Part shown: piece by piece, positions 13,745-58,430 of the stretch | Layout: each line of letters begins with the position of its first letter | Position numbering within the stretch: the first letter of the stretch is position 1 | Assembly: GCF_013315695.1 (NCBI RefSeq) | Contig: NZ_CP054353.1 | DNA from: Escherichia coli | GTDB lineage: Bacteria; Pseudomonadota; Gammaproteobacteria; Enterobacterales; Enterobacteriaceae | DNA length: 64,000 nt | Reading direction: 5' to 3' (one strand) | Notes under the pieces: generated by a model | What the model saw: only the letters and a program-made list of their open reading frames with translations | Database searches by the model: none | Told to the model about the DNA's origin: nothing | Program-made: the position numbers and the translations under genes

Positions 13745-13889
13745 ATACAGCGAACGCCATTGGTTTAGTTGGATATTTACTGTGCCGGACAAAAACGGTT
13801 TGCGGGGAAATCTTAGTTAAGTAGAATAACTGCGGGTGCTTGAGGCTATCTGTCTCAGGCATGAACACCAAAAGGCAGATAGAGAAAAG

Positions 13890-13953
13890 CCCCAGTTAAC
13901 ATTACGCGTCCTGCAAGACGCTTAACATTAATCTGAGGCCATATCTATGCGAC
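13890..13953 (-). ncRNA. Putative Sok-like antisense RNA of the hok locus (extent approximate)
   Basis: Reverse-strand promoter TTGACC, 18 nt, TAATCT (-35 at 13984-13989, -10 at 13960-13965) pointing across the mok-like start; 3' end not defined. Confidence 0.3.
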
Positions 13954-14006
13954 ACATAGAGATTAGCCTCTTACGGACCGAAAGGTCAAGGAGAAGCAGG
14001 CTATGA
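13947..14006 (+). CDS. mok-like leader ORF (19 codons) translationally coupled to hok
   Basis: ATG CGA CAC ... CTA TGA; its stop overlaps the hok ATG (cTATGAag). Confidence 0.35.
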   Translation: MRHIEISLLRTERSRRSRL

Positions 14007-16031: not shown

Positions 16032-16406
16032 ATGCTCATAGATTTGGTTTTACCTTACCCGCCGACGGTGAACACTTACTGGCGACGCCGTGGCAGCACA
16101 TATTTTATCTCGGAGGAGGGAAAGCGTTATCGCCGGGCTGTGGCGCTTATTGTTCGCCAGCAGCGGCTGAAATTAAGCCTGTCCGGAAGGCTGGCGATAA
16201 AGGTGATTGCAGAGCCACCGGATAAGCGTCGTCGCGACCTGGACAATATCCTGAAAGCACCGCTGGATGCGCTGACGCATGCGGGAGTGTTAATGGACGA
16301 TGAGCAGTTTGATGAAATCAATATCGTTCGTGGTCAGCCAGTATCTGGTGGACGTCTGGGGGTGAAGATTTACCCCATAATGCATGAAGAGCAGGTCAAA
16401 AAATGA
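16032..16406 (+). CDS. rusA: Holliday-junction resolvase RusA
   Basis: MLIDLVLPYPPTVNTYWRRRG...DKRRRDLDNILKAPLDALTHAGVLMDDEQ. Confidence 0.85.
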   Translation: MLIDLVLPYPPTVNTYWRRRGSTYFISEEGKRYRRAVALIVRQQRLKLSLSGRLAIKVIAEPPDKRRRDLDNILKAPLDALTHAGVLMDDEQFDEINIVRGQPVSGGRLGVKIYPIMHEEQVKK

Positions 16407-17224
16407 AACTGGAAGATTTACCGAAATACTACTCCCCAAAATCCCCTGGCCTGACCGATGCATCGGCCTCAACGTCAAAAGATGCGCTGAGTATCACTGA
16501 TGTGATGGCCGCGCAGGGCATGACACAGAATCGGGCTGAGATGGGTTTTTCTGCGTTCCTGGGGAAAATGGGCATCAGTATGAATGACAGGGTGCGGGCA
16601 ACAGAATTACTGGCAGATTATGCACTCAGTCGGTGCGATCGTGTGGCGGCGTTGAGAAAACTTCCGGCAGAAATAAAACCGGTAGTGATGCGCATTATGG
16701 CTTCGTACGCTTTTGAGGATTATGCCCGCAGCGCAGCGAGTAAAAAGCAGTGCCCTTGTTGCTATGGGGAAAAATTTATTGAAAGCATAGTTTTTACAAA
16801 CAAGGTCCAGTATCCGGATGGTAAGCCGCCGGTATGGGCAAAGTGTACGAAAGGTGTGTATCCGTCTTACTGGGAAGAATGGAAAAAAGTCAGGGAGGTG
16901 GTAAAAGTTGCCTGTCCGGAGTGTGGCGGAAAGGGTGAGGTTTCCACCGCCTGTAAGGATTGCCGTGGGCGTGGTGTCGCCATTCACCGTGAAGAGTCGG
17001 TAAAACGTGGTATGCCTGTTATCAGAGACTGCCAGCGTTGTGGTGGTCGTGGCTATGAAAGACTACCATCAACGGAGGCATTTAATGCTATATGCGAGGT
17101 GACAAACCAGATAACACGCGCGTCATGGGAAAAAACAGTTAAGAAATTCTATGATGCGCTGGTGACCCGGTTTGATATTGAAGAAGCATGGGCTGAGCGG
17201 CAGTTAAAAAAGGTAACTAGGTAA
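16403..17224 (+). CDS. Late-gene antiterminator Q (QuuQ-like, zinc-finger type)
   Basis: MKLEDLPKYYSPKSPGLTD...; multiple CxxC pairs (CPCCYG, CPECGG, CKDCRG, CQRCGG); overlaps rusA stop. Confidence 0.75.
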   Translation: MKLEDLPKYYSPKSPGLTDASASTSKDALSITDVMAAQGMTQNRAEMGFSAFLGKMGISMNDRVRATELLADYALSRCDRVAALRKLPAEIKPVVMRIMASYAFEDYARSAASKKQCPCCYGEKFIESIVFTNKVQYPDGKPPVWAKCTKGVYPSYWEEWKKVREVVKVACPECGGKGEVSTACKDCRGRGVAIHREESVKRGMPVIRDCQRCGGRGYERLPSTEAFNAICEVTNQITRASWEKTVKKFYDALVTRFDIEEAWAERQLKKVTR

Positions 17225-17229
17225 CAAGG

Positions 17230-17257
17230 TTGATTTTTCCGGAATCTGTGGTAAATT
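17230..17257 (+). promoter_or_regulatory. Late promoter pR'-like
   Basis: TTGATT, 16 nt, TAAATT immediately downstream of Q, same -10 hexamer as lambda pR'. Confidence 0.6.
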
Positions 17258-17306
17258 CGTCATAACGATGGGCCTTTTATGCCTGACGTTAGAAGAGTTT
17301 CTACAA

Positions 17307-17331
17307 CCCGCCGCCGAGCGGGTTTTTTATT
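17307..17331 (+). terminator. tR'-like intrinsic terminator
   Basis: cccgccgccgagcggg hairpin followed by ttttttatt about 45 nt downstream of the putative late start. Confidence 0.65.
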
Positions 17332-17367
17332 GCGGAATTAATTACGGACCGTTATTATTCTGCTCCC

Positions 17368-17443
17368 GGCCCTTTAGCTCAGTGGTGAGAGCGAGCGACT
17401 CATAATCGCCAGGTCGCTGGTTCAAATCCAGCAAGGGCCACCA
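17368..17443 (+). tRNA. ileZ: Prophage tRNA with CAU anticodon, Ile2 (lysidine) type, ileZ-like
   Basis: GGCCCTTTAGCTCAGTGGTGAGAGCGAGCGACTCATAATCGCCAGGTCGCTGGTTCAAATCCAGCAAGGGCCACCA; close to host ileX in sequence. Confidence 0.85.
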
Positions 17444-17543
17444 TCACAAACCGCCATTAGCTTATCAGGAAGAGCAGACGACGCGATAACAGGGTTGTTG
17501 GTGCGGGGGCGGGTCCCCGATGGCGGTCCATTATCGGTATTCA

Positions 17544-17617
17544 GCGTTGTTAGCTCAGCCGGACAGAGCAATTGCCTTCTAAGCAATCGGTCACTGGTTC
17601 GAATCCAGTACAGCGCG
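17544..17617 (+). tRNA. Prophage tRNA-Arg (UCU), argO/argN-like
   Basis: Acceptor GCGTTGT/ACAGCGC, D-stem GCTC/GAGC, anticodon stem ATTGC/GCAAT with loop CTTCTAA, T-arm ACTGGTTCGAATCCAGT; no encoded CCA. Confidence 0.8.
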
Positions 17618-17730
17618 CTATATTCATTCTTCCAGATTCCTTCCGGCAGAGCCTTATACTGAAATATACCTGGCTCAGGATATTGTTGAAAATATTATAT
17701 GTTTGTCAAAAATAAAAGTTCTGTTAAGTA

Positions 17731-18084
17731 TTGATTGAGTGTTTGTTATACGGTCTAATGGTTTTTTCAGCATTAAATATTTATCATTCATATGGTGTGG
17801 GTAGAGTGAATATTGATGAGGCGTCGGGGTGTTTCATCCTTAGGCAGCGTATTGATATAGTCAATGCAGCACGAGCAAAGGCCTTCAGCCGTTTGACAGT
17901 TTTGTTCTGTACTCCTGATCGTCTTTCGGGAAGAGACGTTATTATTCTGAATAGTGATGCTATTCAGAGGGTTTGCGATGAGTTCATGGTTGCTAATTCA
18001 GAATTATTTGCTCTTGTTCAGGAGTACAACAGAATAGCCAGGACCTGTGGTATGGATGAACTTCGGATTACTCATCTGGGGTAG
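17731..18084 (+). CDS. Hypothetical ORF in an AT-rich moron region (start uncertain)
   Basis: Open frame with TTG/ATG starts and no clear RBS. Confidence 0.3.
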   Translation: MIECLLYGLMVFSALNIYHSYGVGRVNIDEASGCFILRQRIDIVNAARAKAFSRLTVLFCTPDRLSGRDVIILNSDAIQRVCDEFMVANSELFALVQEYNRIARTCGMDELRITHLG

Positions 18085-18531
18085 ATACATATCTGGATTA
18101 TCACTTGTTACGGTAAAAAGTGATTGCTTACTGTTTTTGTGAGTGGCATTGCAGCAGCCGGATAATGTCAGTGCTGGCTGACGGTGTGCTGGTGGCGGGT
18201 GTGGTGGTTGTTGCTTTCCCGTTGCTGAAAAAGAAAACGCCAGACTGTTAGCCGGGTATCAGTTAGCGGGAGAAATTTTTAAATACTTCACAATTCAGGC
18301 GGTTGACTGTTGTCTGGTTTGCGGGGAGTTTGTTAAAAGAAACTGGCATGGTGAATCCCCCTGTGCGGAGGGGCAATCAGCGAGTAGGTATATGGGATAA
18401 TCGCGGATTCAGGTGCTGGTACTGAATTCACCGGGAGGCACCCGGCACCATGCAATGGCACATAGCGCCACTCTCCAGCCCCTCTCCGGAGGGGCTGTTT
18501 ATATTGATTTTGTCAGATGTGAGTAAACTCC

Positions 18532-18867
18532 TTATGGACTTTGTTGTTTTAGTCCATAAGGACATATTTGCAGAGTGCAACGGTTATTAAAGCATTCATT
18601 CAATACGTTATCTGTATTTGTAGGACATTCCTGGCTGTTTTTGATTAAATTCCAGAATGTTTTATTGAATGGTGCTACGTTGTAAATGGTTACAGGTAGC
18701 ACTTTGTTATTGAGCATGATACCTGTGTGAGTCAGTGTAAATATACTTTCAGGAGGTAAGAAAGCATCCGATTGATACCAGATTATTAATTTTATTTTAC
18801 TCCATATGACTGAAAAAGATATTCCGCATGATGGCTGGATAACTGTATCAATCACAATCCACTTCAT
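18532..18867 (-). CDS. Hypothetical Cys-containing protein, 111 aa, reverse-strand moron
   Basis: Strong RBS AAGGAAA 5 nt before ATG; GC about 35 percent; opposite strand to the late operon. Confidence 0.5.
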
Positions 18868-19127
18868 TTAGTTTCCTTGTTTATGTCTTGCTGGTGATGT
18901 TCTGAAAAGTATAAATGATATTTTTGAATGTAAACCATAGAGCAGAATTATTTTTCTGATGTTGTTTATTGTTTATTTAAATGCAGGGTGGTTTATATCT
19001 CGTCTTGTAGTTTATCCATGCATATCTGCTTGATGATGAGGTTTTTATTTAAGGTATGGTTTTGTGTTTTTTCTGTATTACATGTCAGGTATTTTAAAGA
19101 ATTATTTTTCAGATGGTGGAAAGAACC

Positions 19128-21089
19128 ATGGCATTTAAACACTATGATGTTGTCAGGGCGGCATCGCCGTCAGACCTTGCGAAACGACTGACACAAAAAC
19201 TGAAGGAGGGGTGGCAGCCATTTGGCAGTCCGGTGGCCATCACGCCTTATACCCTGATGCAGGCCATTGCGGCGGAAGGTGATGTCACCACACCTGTGGT
19301 GGTGAAGCCGTCGGATGGAGAAGGCGCAGTTATCAGCAACACCAGCAACCCGGAGTATTACTTTGTTGTTGCCCTGGCCGGGCAGTCAAACGGTATGGCG
19401 TATGGTGAAGGGCTTCCGCTGCCGGAGACATATGACCGTCCGGACCCGCGTATTAAACAGCTGGCGCGTCGCAGCACTGTCACGCCGGGTGGTGCGTCCT
19501 GTAACTACAATGACATTATTCCTGCGGACCACTGCCTGCATGATGTTCAGGATTTGAGTAAGTTTTCACACCCGAAAGCCAGCGCAGCTCAGTATGGATG
19601 CGTGGGGCAGGGATTACATATCGCGAAGAAATTGTTGCCGTTTATTCCGGCGAATGCCGGTATTCTTCTGGTTCCGTGCTGCCGTGGTGGTTCTGCATTT
19701 TTGGCGGGCGATGAAGGTACCTTCAGCGAATCCACCGGCGCAAGCGAGACCTCGGCACGCTGGGGTGTAGATAAGCCACTGTACAAGGACCTGCTTACCC
19801 GTACTCAGGCCGCACTGAAGGCCAACCCTAAAAATATTCTGCTTGCAGTGGTCTGGATGCAGGGCGAGTTTGATTTGAAACAGGGTGCATACGCCACTCA
19901 GCCGGGGCTGTTTGATTCCATGGTGGAAAAATATCGTTCTGACCTGTCGGAATTCGGAGGTCAGTGTCTCGGGGGCTCTCCGTCATCAGTTCCCTGGATT
20001 TGTGGCGACACGACCTACTACTGGAAGCAGACTTATTCTTCGCAATACGATGCGGTGTATGGTGCATATAAGACGAAATCCGCAAAAAAAATCTTCTTTG
20101 TGCCGTTTATGACGGATGAAAACGGGCGAAATGTGGGTACCAACGAGCCGTCAGAAGATCCGGATGTTGCGGATATTGGGTATTACGGAGCCGGTGGTCG
20201 AACGGACGCCAAAACCTGGACGACGGCTGACCGTAAAACGCATTTTGGATCATGGGCACGTCGTGGGATTATTTCCGACCGTCTGGCAACGGCGATTCTT
20301 GTGCATGCCGGGAGAACCGCTGAATTCATTACCGGAAAACAGCCTGATACGGTGAAGCCCACCGGACCTTCCGGTGAAGGTACGGAGAGAGAGCCGGAAG
20401 GTCCGGTCAGTAACCGAACCCTGATGAGTCTGCTGGCGTCCGGCGAAGACCTGGCATCACAGGGCTGGCGCTATTATCACAAACCGGCGAGCGGAGACAA
20501 TGTTAACAAAAACATTGCTGAAGCGGTGGTCAGTGATGCGGGGGCTACGGGAGGTAAGGCCCTGCAACTGAATAAACCGGAAAACCACATCTGGTTTCTG
20601 GAGCATGATGCAGCCGGGCAGGGGGCAGAGTTGCTGAAGAAAGGAGGACGTGTGAGCGTACGGTTTAAGTTGCCGGGTTCACTGGTGCCGAATCAGTTTG
20701 CCCTGGGCATTTACTGGCAGTTGTCGTCCCTGCCGGAGGGAGTGACGCTGGCAGAGGAAGGCAACGACATGCTGATGTCCTTCTTTCTGCAGACGGATGC
20801 GACGAACCTGAACGCGATGCACCACAAGAAGCCGAATGCGAAGCTGGAAACGTTCGGGGTCTTTGATAACGGATGGCACACACTGGCTTTTGAGTTTGCC
20901 GGAAACAACAGCATTCAGGTGACGCCGGTACTGGATGAGAAACGGGGGACGCCGTTCACACTGGTGAAATCTCCGGCATCAGGGGCGGCGGACAAACTGC
21001 AACTGACAGGCATATCAAAGGCGGCGACATATACGCTGCTGATTGACAGTGTGAAGGTGGAAGTGAACAACGCGGATGCCGCGGCATGA
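19128..21089 (+). CDS. nanS: Prophage NanS-p-type sialate O-acetylesterase (N-terminal DUF1737-like plus SGNH-type esterase)
   Basis: MAFKHYDVVRAASPSDLAKRLTQKLKEGWQPFGSPVAITPYTLMQ... then ...FVVALAGQSNGMAYGEG...; 653 aa. Confidence 0.7.
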   Translation: MAFKHYDVVRAASPSDLAKRLTQKLKEGWQPFGSPVAITPYTLMQAIAAEGDVTTPVVVKPSDGEGAVISNTSNPEYYFVVALAGQSNGMAYGEGLPLPETYDRPDPRIKQLARRSTVTPGGASCNYNDIIPADHCLHDVQDLSKFSHPKASAAQYGCVGQGLHIAKKLLPFIPANAGILLVPCCRGGSAFLAGDEGTFSESTGASETSARWGVDKPLYKDLLTRTQAALKANPKNILLAVVWMQGEFDLKQGAYATQPGLFDSMVEKYRSDLSEFGGQCLGGSPSSVPWICGDTTYYWKQTYSSQYDAVYGAYKTKSAKKIFFVPFMTDENGRNVGTNEPSEDPDVADIGYYGAGGRTDAKTWTTADRKTHFGSWARRGIISDRLATAILVHAGRTAEFITGKQPDTVKPTGPSGEGTEREPEGPVSNRTLMSLLASGEDLASQGWRYYHKPASGDNVNKNIAEAVVSDAGATGGKALQLNKPENHIWFLEHDAAGQGAELLKKGGRVSVRFKLPGSLVPNQFALGIYWQLSSLPEGVTLAEEGNDMLMSFFLQTDATNLNAMHHKKPNAKLETFGVFDNGWHTLAFEFAGNNSIQVTPVLDEKRGTPFTLVKSPASGAADKLQLTGISKAATYTLLIDSVKVEVNNADAAA

Positions 21090-21782: not shown

Positions 21783-21998
21783 ATGTACCAGATGGAAAAA
21801 ATCACAACAGGTGTGTCATACACCACGTCAGCGGTGGGAACGGGCTACTGGTTCCTGCAGTTGCTGGACAGGGTTTCCCCGTCTCAGTGGGCGGCAATAG
21901 GCGTGCTGGGGAGTCTGCTGTTTGGGCTGCTGACATATCTGACTAACCTGTATTTCAAAATCAGAGAGGACCGGCGTAAGGCGGCGCGGGGAGAGTAA
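21783..21998 (+). CDS. S: Class II holin, S21-like pinholin, dual-start motif
   Basis: [71 protein letters not shown]; Met1 and Met4 starts. Confidence 0.85.
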
Positions 21999-22002
21999 AG
22001 TG

Positions 22003-22893
22003 ATGAATAAAAAATATGAACTGGTTGTTAAGGGGATAAATAATTACGGGGATAAGGTTACTGTTACTGTGAAGCCGGAAGGTGACGGGCAAGCGTCGCT
22101 GTTGTTGCCAGATGTGGCGATTAGTCTTGACCGTACTGAAGGTGCCACGCTGGAGTTTTACGAAGCTGAGGCGAAAAAGCAGGCGAAGCAGTTTTTCATG
22201 GATGTTGCTGCCGGGTTATGTGAATGGAACGAACCGTTGCCGGAAAAGCGCCCCGTAATTTTAGAGGCGCAGGATGTGTTGATAACCTACAAAGGAAAGC
22301 TACCGGGAAGAATTACTTGTTCTCTGAAGATGCCGCCGTCAACACTGCGGTCAGAAAAAGATGATGTTGAATCACGTATTGAAAAACTGGAGAGCTACGT
22401 CGTTGAGCTGAATAAGAAATGGTCGATATTGGTGCCTTCTGGCGATGAAAAGCAGTTTGCTGCGTTTGACGATTATTGTCGGAAAGTGATGAGCAGAAAT
22501 CTCGCAGAGTGTTTCAGTATTCATAATGATAATTTCAGTGAGCTGGAATGGGAGTGTAACCGGCCATCCTTTGTTGTATCCGGTGATGCTGGGAAAATAA
22601 CCATCTCAGAAAATGGGAAAGTAACACCTCCATCGCACCAGCACAGTGAGGAGCTCATTGAATTTGCCATTGATTACCTGAAGAACAATAAAAAGCAGGG
22701 GCTGATGAAGCGCGTTGGCCGTTGCATGGGATATCTTCAGGTAGCCGCTGAGATTGAAGCGCTGGCCAGTGGTGCTGATAAGGATGCAATTGTGCGGGAG
22801 GCTCTTCTTCGTGATTTTAATACTCCACCCTTTAAAAAAGTGCCGGCTTACTGGCTTCATCCGGGGCTGACTTATCTTAAAGTGCGTATTTAG
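22003..22893 (+). CDS. Unknown cytoplasmic protein, 297 aa, embedded between holin and endolysin
   Basis: ATG 5 nt after the holin stop with GGGGAGAG RBS inside the holin 3' end; no TM segments; no family recognised. Confidence 0.7.
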   Translation: MNKKYELVVKGINNYGDKVTVTVKPEGDGQASLLLPDVAISLDRTEGATLEFYEAEAKKQAKQFFMDVAAGLCEWNEPLPEKRPVILEAQDVLITYKGKLPGRITCSLKMPPSTLRSEKDDVESRIEKLESYVVELNKKWSILVPSGDEKQFAAFDDYCRKVMSRNLAECFSIHNDNFSELEWECNRPSFVVSGDAGKITISENGKVTPPSHQHSEELIEFAIDYLKNNKKQGLMKRVGRCMGYLQVAAEIEALASGADKDAIVREALLRDFNTPPFKKVPAYWLHPGLTYLKVRI

Positions 22894-22929
22894 TGGGCCA
22901 GGGACAGCGGCTGAATATTTAATATATCC

Positions 22930-23463
22930 ATGAACACCAAAATCAAATACGGCCTGTCGGCTGCCGTTCTGGCGCTGATTGCCGCTGGTGCGCCTGCGCC
23001 TGACATTCTCGACCAGTTTCTGGATGAAAAGGAAGGCAACCACACCACAGCATACCGTGATGGTGCAGGTATCTGGACCATCTGCCGTGGTGCCATCATG
23101 GTGGATGGCAAACCTGTCGTTCCGGGCATGAAGTTGTCGAAGGAAAAATGCGACCAGGTTAACGCCATTGAGCGTGATAAAGCGCTGGCGTGGGTGGAGA
23201 AAAACATCAGAGTGCCGCTGACCGAACCCCAGAAAGCGGGGATCGCGTCATTCTGTCCGTACAACATTGGTCCCGGTAAGTGTTTCCCGTCGACGTTTTA
23301 TAAACGAATTAATGCAGGTGATCGCAGGGGAGCGTGTGAGGCGATTCGCTGGTGGATTAAGGACGGTGGCAGAGACTGCCGTATCCGCTCAAACAACTGT
23401 TATGGTCAGGTATCCCGTCGTGACCAGGAGAGCGCGCTGGCGTGCTGGGGAATCGACAGATAA
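22930..23463 (+). CDS. R: SAR (signal-anchor-release) endolysin, R21-like lysozyme
   Basis: MNTKIKYGLSAAVLALIAAGAPAPDILDQFLDEKEGNHTTAYRDGAGIWTICRG... Confidence 0.85.
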   Translation: MNTKIKYGLSAAVLALIAAGAPAPDILDQFLDEKEGNHTTAYRDGAGIWTICRGAIMVDGKPVVPGMKLSKEKCDQVNAIERDKALAWVEKNIRVPLTEPQKAGIASFCPYNIGPGKCFPSTFYKRINAGDRRGACEAIRWWIKDGGRDCRIRSNNCYGQVSRRDQESALACWGIDR

Positions 23464-57801: not shown

Positions 57802-58430
57802 TATGTATTCCCTTGTGATTATAATCTTCATGAATATATCAATAAGTGCTGTTATCCAAAAAAAGCACATTTGGATACTATTCTATGAAGTTCATTTTAT
57901 TTTAAAGATTACATGTAACAAATGTATTTAAAAGATTTCAAAATGTTTCTAATCTATTTAATATAATTCATAGTTATGAATTCTGAATATAAATATTCAC
58001 GAATATTATGGATATATATCAATATGTTATGAGTTGATCGAAAAGATAGGGAGTATCAATGATTGTTGCGCTAAACGGCTGGTGTGATCTCGCGCACATT
58101 AATGAAGGCATAAAAAAAAGCCGGCATCATGCCGGCCCAAAAAAATATAAACAAGACGATAAAAGGCTAATAACGGAGGCATGATGACACAGAAAAATAA
58201 AAAGGTATAATTGTAATCAGTACCAATATATTGATTGAATGAATTAATAAAGCCGAAATCAAAGATAAATAACATCGTTCAAATCGATTTTTCCTGTATT
58301 CACCGCCGTTGCGCAAAATTTATCTATTTGTTCAAAAAATGATTGAGTCTTGACTGGCTCATCCAATGTGGAAAAATGTGACTTTTATCACATAATAGTT
58401 CTAAGTCTGAATTTTCCGGGTTATCTCAAA

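Follow-up and report, generated by a model that had tools for sequence, protein, structure and literature searches.

What occupies the stretch of low guanine–cytosine (GC) content that separates the phage transfer RNAs (tRNAs) from the nanS-p-type esterase gene of an Escherichia coli lambdoid prophage, and is any of it new cargo? The question arose at positions 17620–19112 of a 64,000-nucleotide stretch of the E. coli contig NZ_CP054353.1 (assembly GCF_013315695.1; the whole stretch is referred to hereafter as the window), where an original prediction, made from the letters alone, had proposed an AT-rich moron island with a reverse-strand gene, placed where Shiga toxin (Stx) phages carry their toxin genes. 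We find that the reverse-strand gene is, by homology, iraL, an already characterized prophage gene for an anti-adaptor of RssB, and that the interval is very probably a variable cargo slot of the lambdoid late operon, holding iraL, the small RNA (sRNA) STnc100, a gene for a conserved 92-residue phage protein and a DUF3927 gene. The gene order bears out moron-type cargo in the slot between Q, the tRNAs and nanS-p; the region is real but ordinary, its cargo being already known (iraL is published and annotated, STnc100 is catalogued). The features of the reverse strand are as follows.

18532..18867, minus strand: iraL, RssB anti-adaptor of the IraM/IraL/RssC family, 111 residues, ATG start (homology)
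18868..18900, minus strand: iraL 5′ untranslated region (UTR), 33 nt, with ribosome-binding site (RBS) AAGGAAA at 18878–18872 (match to mapped mRNA 5′ end)
18908..18934, minus strand: iraL sigma-70-type promoter, −10 TATACT at 18913–18908 and −35 TTTACA at 18934–18929 (comparison with strain CFT073)
18529..18562, minus strand: 12-bp perfect hairpin, arms 18529–18540 and 18551–18562, loop of 10 nt (sequence, folding)

The strongly signalled reverse open reading frame (ORF) of 111 residues is present as predicted, and its AAGGAAA RBS, 4 nt upstream of the ATG, was confirmed. ORF length had to be rejected as coding evidence (an ORF of at least 111 residues appeared in 47 of 1000 mononucleotide shuffles of the interval, 4.7%), and it is therefore homology that decides the coding status of this frame. 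The profile and structure searches that had been proposed as a check were run and gave concordant matches, to the NCBIfam model NF007393, “anti-adapter protein IraM” (162.4 bits against a cut-off of 121; protein residues 1–110 on profile positions 1–113 of 114), and to the IraM(1–78) core of PDB 8twd, which aligns without gaps over residues 1–78 (expectation value, E, 2e-32). Of the RssB-contact residues of IraM named in bioRxiv 10.1101/2023.01.07.523045, C14, F18, W30, I61 and Y62 are kept in the window protein, with differences at three others (T13S, H63N and I64V). The Prokaryotic Genome Annotation Pipeline (PGAP) carries the identical sequence as WP_001336019.1, again under the name anti-adapter protein IraM.

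Both names, together with the homology of the N-terminal RssB-binding core to the IraM of PDB 8twd, would suit a gene with the function of IraM proper, which would, like that of K-12, respond to Mg2+ starvation by way of PhoP/PhoQ. We consider this very improbable, since the protein is 62.6% identical to K-12 IraM as against 99.1% to IraL (110 of 111 residues shared with the CFT073 protein, the difference being A65V), since the region upstream of its ATG cannot be aligned to that of K-12 iraM and matches instead the promoter and 5′ UTR of iraL, and since hits to iraL and iraM are reported not to overlap and the two proteins to contact RssB differently (PMC4045071). The published definition of IraL asks for at least 95% identity to CFT073 iraL across the whole coding region (PMC4045071); against the 110 of 111 residues shared here, K-12 iraM reaches only about 72–74% nucleotide identity. 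A blastn search of complete E. coli genomes resolved three nucleotide classes, one at 95% or above (~1,445 genomes), one at ~78% that corresponds to O157 Stx2 prophages, and one at ~71.5% that corresponds to K-12 iraM. K-12 IraM itself, a Mg2+-starvation-induced RssB anti-adaptor encoded at the edge of the e14 element, belongs to the same family and shares the ungapped β-barrel core of residues 1–78; the window protein differs from it by a four-residue C-terminal extension (QQSP), and its gene by an unrelated upstream region and another genomic context.

The closest relative of the window gene is thus iraL of the uropathogenic strain CFT073 (locus c1429, PMC12890032; formerly ycgW; Hryckowian et al. 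2014, PMC4045071), carried by the potB-island prophage of that strain. Window positions 17326–19285 are 96.9% identical at the nucleotide level to the CFT073 locus, with which they share the promoter hexamers, the transcription start, the RBS and the 3′ hairpin, and the neighbours are the same on both sides (Q, tRNAs, DUF3927, STnc100, iraL, the DUF1737/esterase gene and holin). CFT073 differs in having an IS200C transposase gene between the tR′-like terminator and the tRNAs (L002, 11701–12159), in having three tRNAs to the two of the window (the middle tRNA-Arg is missing from the window) and in its truncated esterase; furthermore, the left end of the window prophage adjoins tRNA genes, whereas the CFT073 prophage lies beside potB/potC.

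IraL is known to bind RssB, and its deletion halves the log-phase half-life of RpoS in CFT073 and lowers RpoS in Shigella sonnei, the deletion being complemented from the native promoter by a fragment spanning −100 to +33 around the start (PMC4045071). Elsewhere in the literature, iraL mRNA or protein is raised in a fur mutant and on upshift to 37°C. Because the window protein is 99% identical to CFT073 IraL, the same steps are expected of it: it would bind the adaptor RssB and so block delivery of RpoS to ClpXP, and RpoS would be more stable in growing cells, as shown in CFT073 and Shigella sonnei.

We then consider expression. The 5′ end of the CFT073 mRNA, mapped by rapid amplification of cDNA ends (5′-RACE), is ACATCACCAGCAAGGCATAAACAAGGAAACCA (PMC4045071); this reported 32-nt end matches the window with two substitutions, and the start of iraL transcription is therefore placed at 18900. 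The −10 and −35 hexamers upstream are identical to those of CFT073, and their assignment is our own rather than the published one. The window gene thus has, at the level of sequence, an intact promoter, 5′ UTR, RBS and ORF, and the original proposal of a reverse gene with its own promoter, opposing late transcription, holds in that its 5′ region matches the mapped CFT073 transcript. Three points weigh against so simple an account: the spacer between the hexamers is only 15 nt (which is why a generic promoter scan did not list them), three substitutions relative to CFT073 fall near the start (one at position −1 and two in the 5′ UTR), and expression in this particular strain is read from the DNA. 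With these in mind, we hold it to be highly likely, on the strength of the match to the CFT073 transcript, that iraL is a self-promoted moron whose expression in the lysogen does not depend on Q-driven late transcription. The region would then neatly illustrate the rewiring of a core host regulon (RpoS) by a prophage moron, through a phage-borne anti-adaptor that raises RpoS in growing cells and is linked to uropathogenic and Shigella lineages. All of this has been published since 2014, and no new biology is added here, iraL being already in the literature and in the RefSeq annotation.

The position of the interval had been likened to the slot that holds the toxin genes of Stx phages, and the gene order of an O157 Stx2c prophage (L004) agrees with this: it runs Q, three tRNAs, stx2A, stx2B, STnc100, a reverse-strand IraM-like gene and the esterase. 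The variable piece is the interval from the tRNAs to STnc100, in which the stx2AB genes of Stx2 phages replace the 92-residue and DUF3927 genes of the window, whereas STnc100 and the reverse anti-adaptor gene form a shared backbone where they are carried. The IraM-like gene of Stx2c and some Stx2a phages (WP_001303568.1, O157 strain 180-PT54; phage 2851; Stx2-converting phage 1717) occupies that slot too and points the same way, with STnc100 on one side and the nanS-p esterase on the other; its 107-residue product is 75.7% identical to window IraL and lacks the QQSP tail, as its gene lacks the 12-bp hairpin. By tblastn, this gene is present in 46 phage records, mostly of Stx2c/Stx2a-converting phages, and is unannotated in most of them; that the Stx2-phage slot holds stx2AB, STnc100 and this largely unannotated gene is a modest but useful point of the comparison. 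The copy at L004 4003–4326 is a third IraM/IraL paralogue, 107 residues long, 75.7% identical to IraL and 65% to IraM; we found no paper that tests the Stx2-phage paralogue as an RssB anti-adaptor, and made no dedicated search for one.

The shared position invites the reading that the cargo in the window is a new toxin or virulence factor comparable to Stx, since stx2AB stand at the equivalent place in L004. We give this reading next to no weight: stx2AB are absent from the window, none of the interval ORFs has a toxin domain by Pfam, NCBIfam or PHROG, and IraL, STnc100 and DUF3927 are all named families, which accounts for three of the four elements. The fourth, the 92-residue ORF, matches only the unnamed phrog_2873, without a toxin domain, and its modeled structure is a small fold of coiled-coil type with weak prefoldin-like matches. 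Toxin-like cargo was rejected on these grounds. Of the original suggestion that independently expressed cargo in the place of Stx toxin genes was worth checking, the signals for independent expression stand (iraL has its own promoter); the cargo itself is neither new nor toxin-like, the gene being iraL and annotated by PGAP as an IraM-family anti-adapter.

The “AT-rich island” of about 1.5 kb fared similarly, in that the low GC content is real (39.2% over 17620–19112 against 50.4% for the window) and the single block is not. At least four separate elements make up the interval, a mosaic of uneven GC content: 38% over 17620–18119, 55% over the sRNA at 18317–18506, 32% over 18507–19112, and 28.6% in the spacer upstream of iraL. 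The features read on the forward strand, and one annotation that overlies them, are the following.

17806..18084, plus strand: gene for a conserved 92-residue phage protein, phrog_2873 family, GTG start (PHROG, homologues)
18120..18251, plus strand: gene for a DUF3927 small hydrophobic protein, 43 residues, GTG start (Pfam PF13064, PGAP WP_000562553.1)
18317..18506, plus strand: STnc100 sRNA (Rfam RF02076), about 190 nt (covariance model)
18336..18461, minus strand: “hypothetical protein, incomplete” pseudo-coding sequence, wholly inside STnc100 (PGAP)

STnc100 had not been recorded in the original prediction. The RF02076 match scores 132.4 bits against a gathering score of 47 (E 4e-30) and covers the full model, 1–206 of 206, untruncated, and the minimum free energy fold reproduces the multi-hairpin core and terminator of STnc100. 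The forward terminator-like hairpin noticed earlier at about 18478–18505 does exist, at 18476–18497, as a stem of CAGCCCCTC and GAGGGGCTG (9 bp, 7 of them G–C pairs) followed by TTTATATT; rather than standing alone as a terminator, it forms the 3′ end of STnc100. The same family is found directly downstream of stx2B in the O157 Stx2c prophage (158 bits) and is kept across three different upstream cargos (the two other contexts are loci L005 and L014); STnc100 is a constant feature of this late-region slot. STnc100 has been described downstream of stx2, in partial overlap with the Hfq-bound sRNA EcOnc27/sRNA103 and with a likely common origin with PasD (PMC12370729, PMC12711010, bioRxiv 10.64898/2026.05.13.724894), and for the O157 copy, detected by experiment as EcOnc27/sRNA103, transcription as a discrete RNA and Hfq binding are reported (PMC12711010). 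The window copy shares with that locus the full-length model match, the terminator and the late-region place, and differs from it in following DUF3927 instead of stx2B and in having a shorter central variable hairpin.

No convincing sigma-70 hexamers were found upstream of STnc100, either by promoter scan or in an alignment of three loci. A block at 18277–18316 on the plus strand, ahead of the Rfam start (TCACAATTCAG..GTTGAC.GTTG.CTG), is conserved in three otherwise diverged loci; with no recognizable sigma-70 promoter in it, it may belong to a longer RNA or serve as a signal for processing. PGAP leaves STnc100 unannotated here and puts the pseudo-coding sequence over it, a point useful to users of the annotation; the same pseudo-coding sequence recurs in CFT073 and other genomes and is probably a propagated annotation artefact.

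The forward half of the interval also holds two protein genes. Upstream lies the ORF that had been listed, as a weaker forward candidate, at 17731–18084: a frame with a TTG start is present over that span, and the start does not hold, as the conserved gene begins within the frame, at GTG 17806. The start chosen by PHROG and many gene callers is ATG 17758 (108 residues), whereas an exhaustive search returned homologues of 33–64% identity, mostly of 91–95 residues, whose alignments begin at residue 26 of the ORF, corresponding to GTG 17806. The GTG/ATG start is conserved in these relatives, which carry AGGAG or AAGGGA before it; in the window, this site is weakened to GTGGGT. Judged by homology, the forward ORF represents a genuine phage gene that is conserved: it matches phrog_2873 at E 4e-70, and comparison with a homologue of 56% identity gives a ratio of nonsynonymous to synonymous substitution rates (dN/dS) of 0.35, with the lowest conservation at the third codon position (53% against 70–72%). 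Pfam and NCBIfam profile searches of the ORF matched no family. An AlphaFold2 model of the protein displays a long helix, a β-hairpin and a second long helix (predicted local distance difference test, pLDDT, 89), for which a Foldseek search of the PDB gave prefoldin beta as the best, weak match (E 0.02, template-modeling score 0.70) along with generic helical hairpins, and no function was assigned. A PDB profile search with the family alignment returned a sole match, to a designed coiled coil at E 0.007, which we judged meaningless.

The DUF3927 gene, likewise missing from the original prediction, follows after a gap of 35 bp. It matches Pfam PF13064 at 95.6 bits (cut-off 25) and the “TciB-like” phrog_1470 at E 8e-13, and its product, WP_000562553.1, is identical in CFT073. 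Relatives present a longer arrangement, in the order AraC-like helix–turn–helix (HTH) regulator, 92-residue protein, TerB-like protein, 50-residue DUF3927 protein and holin, and only window positions 18153–18233 (residues 12–38 of the DUF3927 protein) are homologous to the 50–54-residue DUF3927 forms that follow the TerB-like gene there, the first 11 residues being unrelated. This late-region cassette upstream of holin was seen at L007 3142–5038, L009 4001–5063 and L014 665–1251, the loci keeping different subsets of it, and its TerB and DUF3927 genes overlap by 4 nt; in another E. coli strain, the order is a TerB-family gene, a 54-residue DUF3927 gene and a diverged iraL-like gene. The 92-residue family with its AraC-like, TerB-like and DUF3927 neighbours is thus a conserved late-region cassette that lacks a characterized function.

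As in the TerB-like/DUF3927 pair of lambdoid late regions, the window DUF3927 gene keeps its relative position upstream of the lysis genes, and the TerB-like gene is missing: tblastn of the L007 and L009 TerB-like proteins against 17200–19300 found nothing, so that the pair as such is absent, and neither the AraC-like nor the TerB-like gene left any trace in the window by tblastn. This pair may resemble tciA/tciB of phage P1, as the PHROG label “TciB-like” suggests; a literature search on tciA/tciB gave only papers on Trypanosoma cruzi genotypes. As the AraC-like and TerB-like genes are missing and only part of the DUF3927 protein is homologous, the forward half is a reduced version of the larger cassette, and both forward genes would be what remains of it.

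The 92-residue ORF and the short DUF3927 gene could be a non-functional deletion remnant, carried along between the tRNAs and STnc100, a reading to which we allot appreciable, though clearly less than even, weight. The full cassette in relatives (L007–L011, L014), the absence of its AraC-like and TerB-like members and the restriction of DUF3927 homology to residues 12–38 of the window protein all fit a remnant, and three observations count directly against a working pair of genes: the Shine–Dalgarno sequences of the forward genes are weak (that of the 92-residue gene being the GTGGGT noted above), PGAP gives the 92-residue gene no annotation, and, with their partners missing, the two genes may be decaying. 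Against decay stand the intact 92-residue frame in the window, in CFT073 and in hundreds of database entries (clusters of 146–370 members), the dN/dS of 0.35 against a distant homologue, and the Pfam score of the 43-residue DUF3927 protein, which marks the short form as itself common in the family.

How the slot would be transcribed is suggested by the features that flank it.

16403–17224: Q antiterminator, 273 residues (Pfam Antiterm)
17230..17257, plus strand: candidate late promoter pR′ (TTGATT, 16 nt, TAAATT), directly after Q (read from sequence)
17305..17331, plus strand: tR′-like intrinsic terminator (AACCCGCCGCCGAGCGGGTT + TTTTATT) (terminator scan)
17368..17443, plus strand: phage tRNA, anticodon CAT, tRNA-Ile by PGAP (tRNA/Rfam/PGAP)
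17544..17618, plus strand: phage tRNA-Arg (TCT) (tRNA/Rfam/PGAP)
19113..21089, plus strand: nanS-p-type SASA esterase (DUF1737 + SASA + DUF6645), PGAP start 19128 (ORF list, PGAP, Pfam)

Holin and lysis genes lie downstream of the esterase. The candidate pR′ scores 8 of 12, under the threshold of the promoter scan, and we infer the pR′/tR′ assignment from lambdoid gene order; the block at 17200–17332 shares 99% identity with its counterpart after Q in CFT073 and 84% with L007, and a weak Trp_leader-like Rfam match at 17225–17331 is the same hairpin as the tR′-like terminator. By this gene order, RNA polymerase modified by Q and starting at pR′ would read the tRNAs, the 92-residue gene, the DUF3927 gene and STnc100, such that the 92-residue protein and the 43-residue DUF3927 membrane peptide are presumably made from the late transcript; transcription would then run antisense across iraL and on into the esterase and lysis genes. 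Lying on the Q-dependent late transcript, the forward genes would therefore be induction-dependent, like stx, with iraL as the moron expressed in the lysogen.

These two transcription units converge at the 12-bp perfect stem that had been reported over the stop codon of the reverse ORF. The stem is real, sits 2 nt to the right of where it had been placed and covers the TAA at 18534–18532; the upstream arm encodes PYGL and the downstream arm S-P-stop, and 22 nt separate the hairpin from the end of convergent STnc100. Folded as minus-strand RNA, it reaches −17.5 kcal/mol (z = −5.0), a stability equalled in 0 of 200 shuffles. It is identical in CFT073, and of 5,426 complete E. coli genomes, 1,447 carry the 3′ end of iraL, the 61-nt segment around the hairpin being 100% identical in 991 of them and 95–99% identical in 427; one variant, a common one, has GGG for GGA, a synonymous change by which an A–U pair becomes G–U. 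The hairpin is a feature of iraL in particular: the Stx2-phage paralogue and K-12 iraM end in PYG(L/R)K-stop and lack the second arm, iraL having CAA at the position of the paralogue's TAA stop plus ~28 nt that supply the QQSP tail and second arm, and strain 06-00048, whose allele is diverged, retains pairing at only 6 of the 12 positions.

On this evidence the hairpin may mark or stabilize the iraL mRNA's 3′ end, a role that is plausible and weakly inferred. It is opposed by the composition of the stem (5 G–C pairs of 12, followed by GUUUACUC (GUUUAC) with no U-tract) and by its being broken or absent in diverged alleles. Two more definite roles were rejected, that of an intrinsic (Rho-independent) terminator, for want of a U-tract (the minus-strand terminator scan did not report the stem), and that of a conserved family feature, as the stem is broken in three diverged paralogues or alleles. 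The same observations would suit a lineage-specific quasi-palindrome, for example one perfected by template-switch mutation, with no selected function, a reading that we judge evenly balanced: besides the missing U-tract and the loss of pairing outside iraL, the iraL alleles are more than 95% identical, so that conservation carries little information, whereas a perfect 12-bp stem is far beyond chance, the sole common variant keeps pairing, and the location exactly between two convergent transcription units is one where a 3′-end structure would be useful.

Taken jointly, the proposition that the forward half is a working minimal late-operon cassette and that the hairpin defines the iraL mRNA 3′ end appears to us unlikely. 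Were it true, the 92-residue protein, DUF3927 and STnc100 would form a minimal cassette that alternates with stx2AB in the slot, the hairpin would insulate the iraL mRNA from convergent STnc100 and Q-dependent late transcription, and prophage induction and RpoS stabilization would be coupled via transcriptional interference.

Several observations concern the wider prophage. At the left end of the window are a tRNA-Asn gene (680–755, minus strand) and a tRNA-Ser(CGA) gene (1747–1836, plus strand), whereas the near-identical prophage of strain 190693 and CFT073 adjoins potC/potB and has an integrase in the corresponding place; this late region therefore seems to be carried by prophages that differ in left end or integration site. 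The YdfR-family gene after holin (21988–22323, plus strand) is annotated as truncated in the identical region of strain 190693, and the lysis region is seemingly interrupted by a reverse-strand hypothetical gene (22804–23118), such that the prophage may be partly defective. Other Rfam RNAs in the window are the sok antitoxin (13834–14005, plus strand, with hokD adjoining), DicF (6262–6313, minus strand) and rseX (58113–58203, minus strand), the last presumably lying in chromosomal DNA that flanks the prophage on its right.

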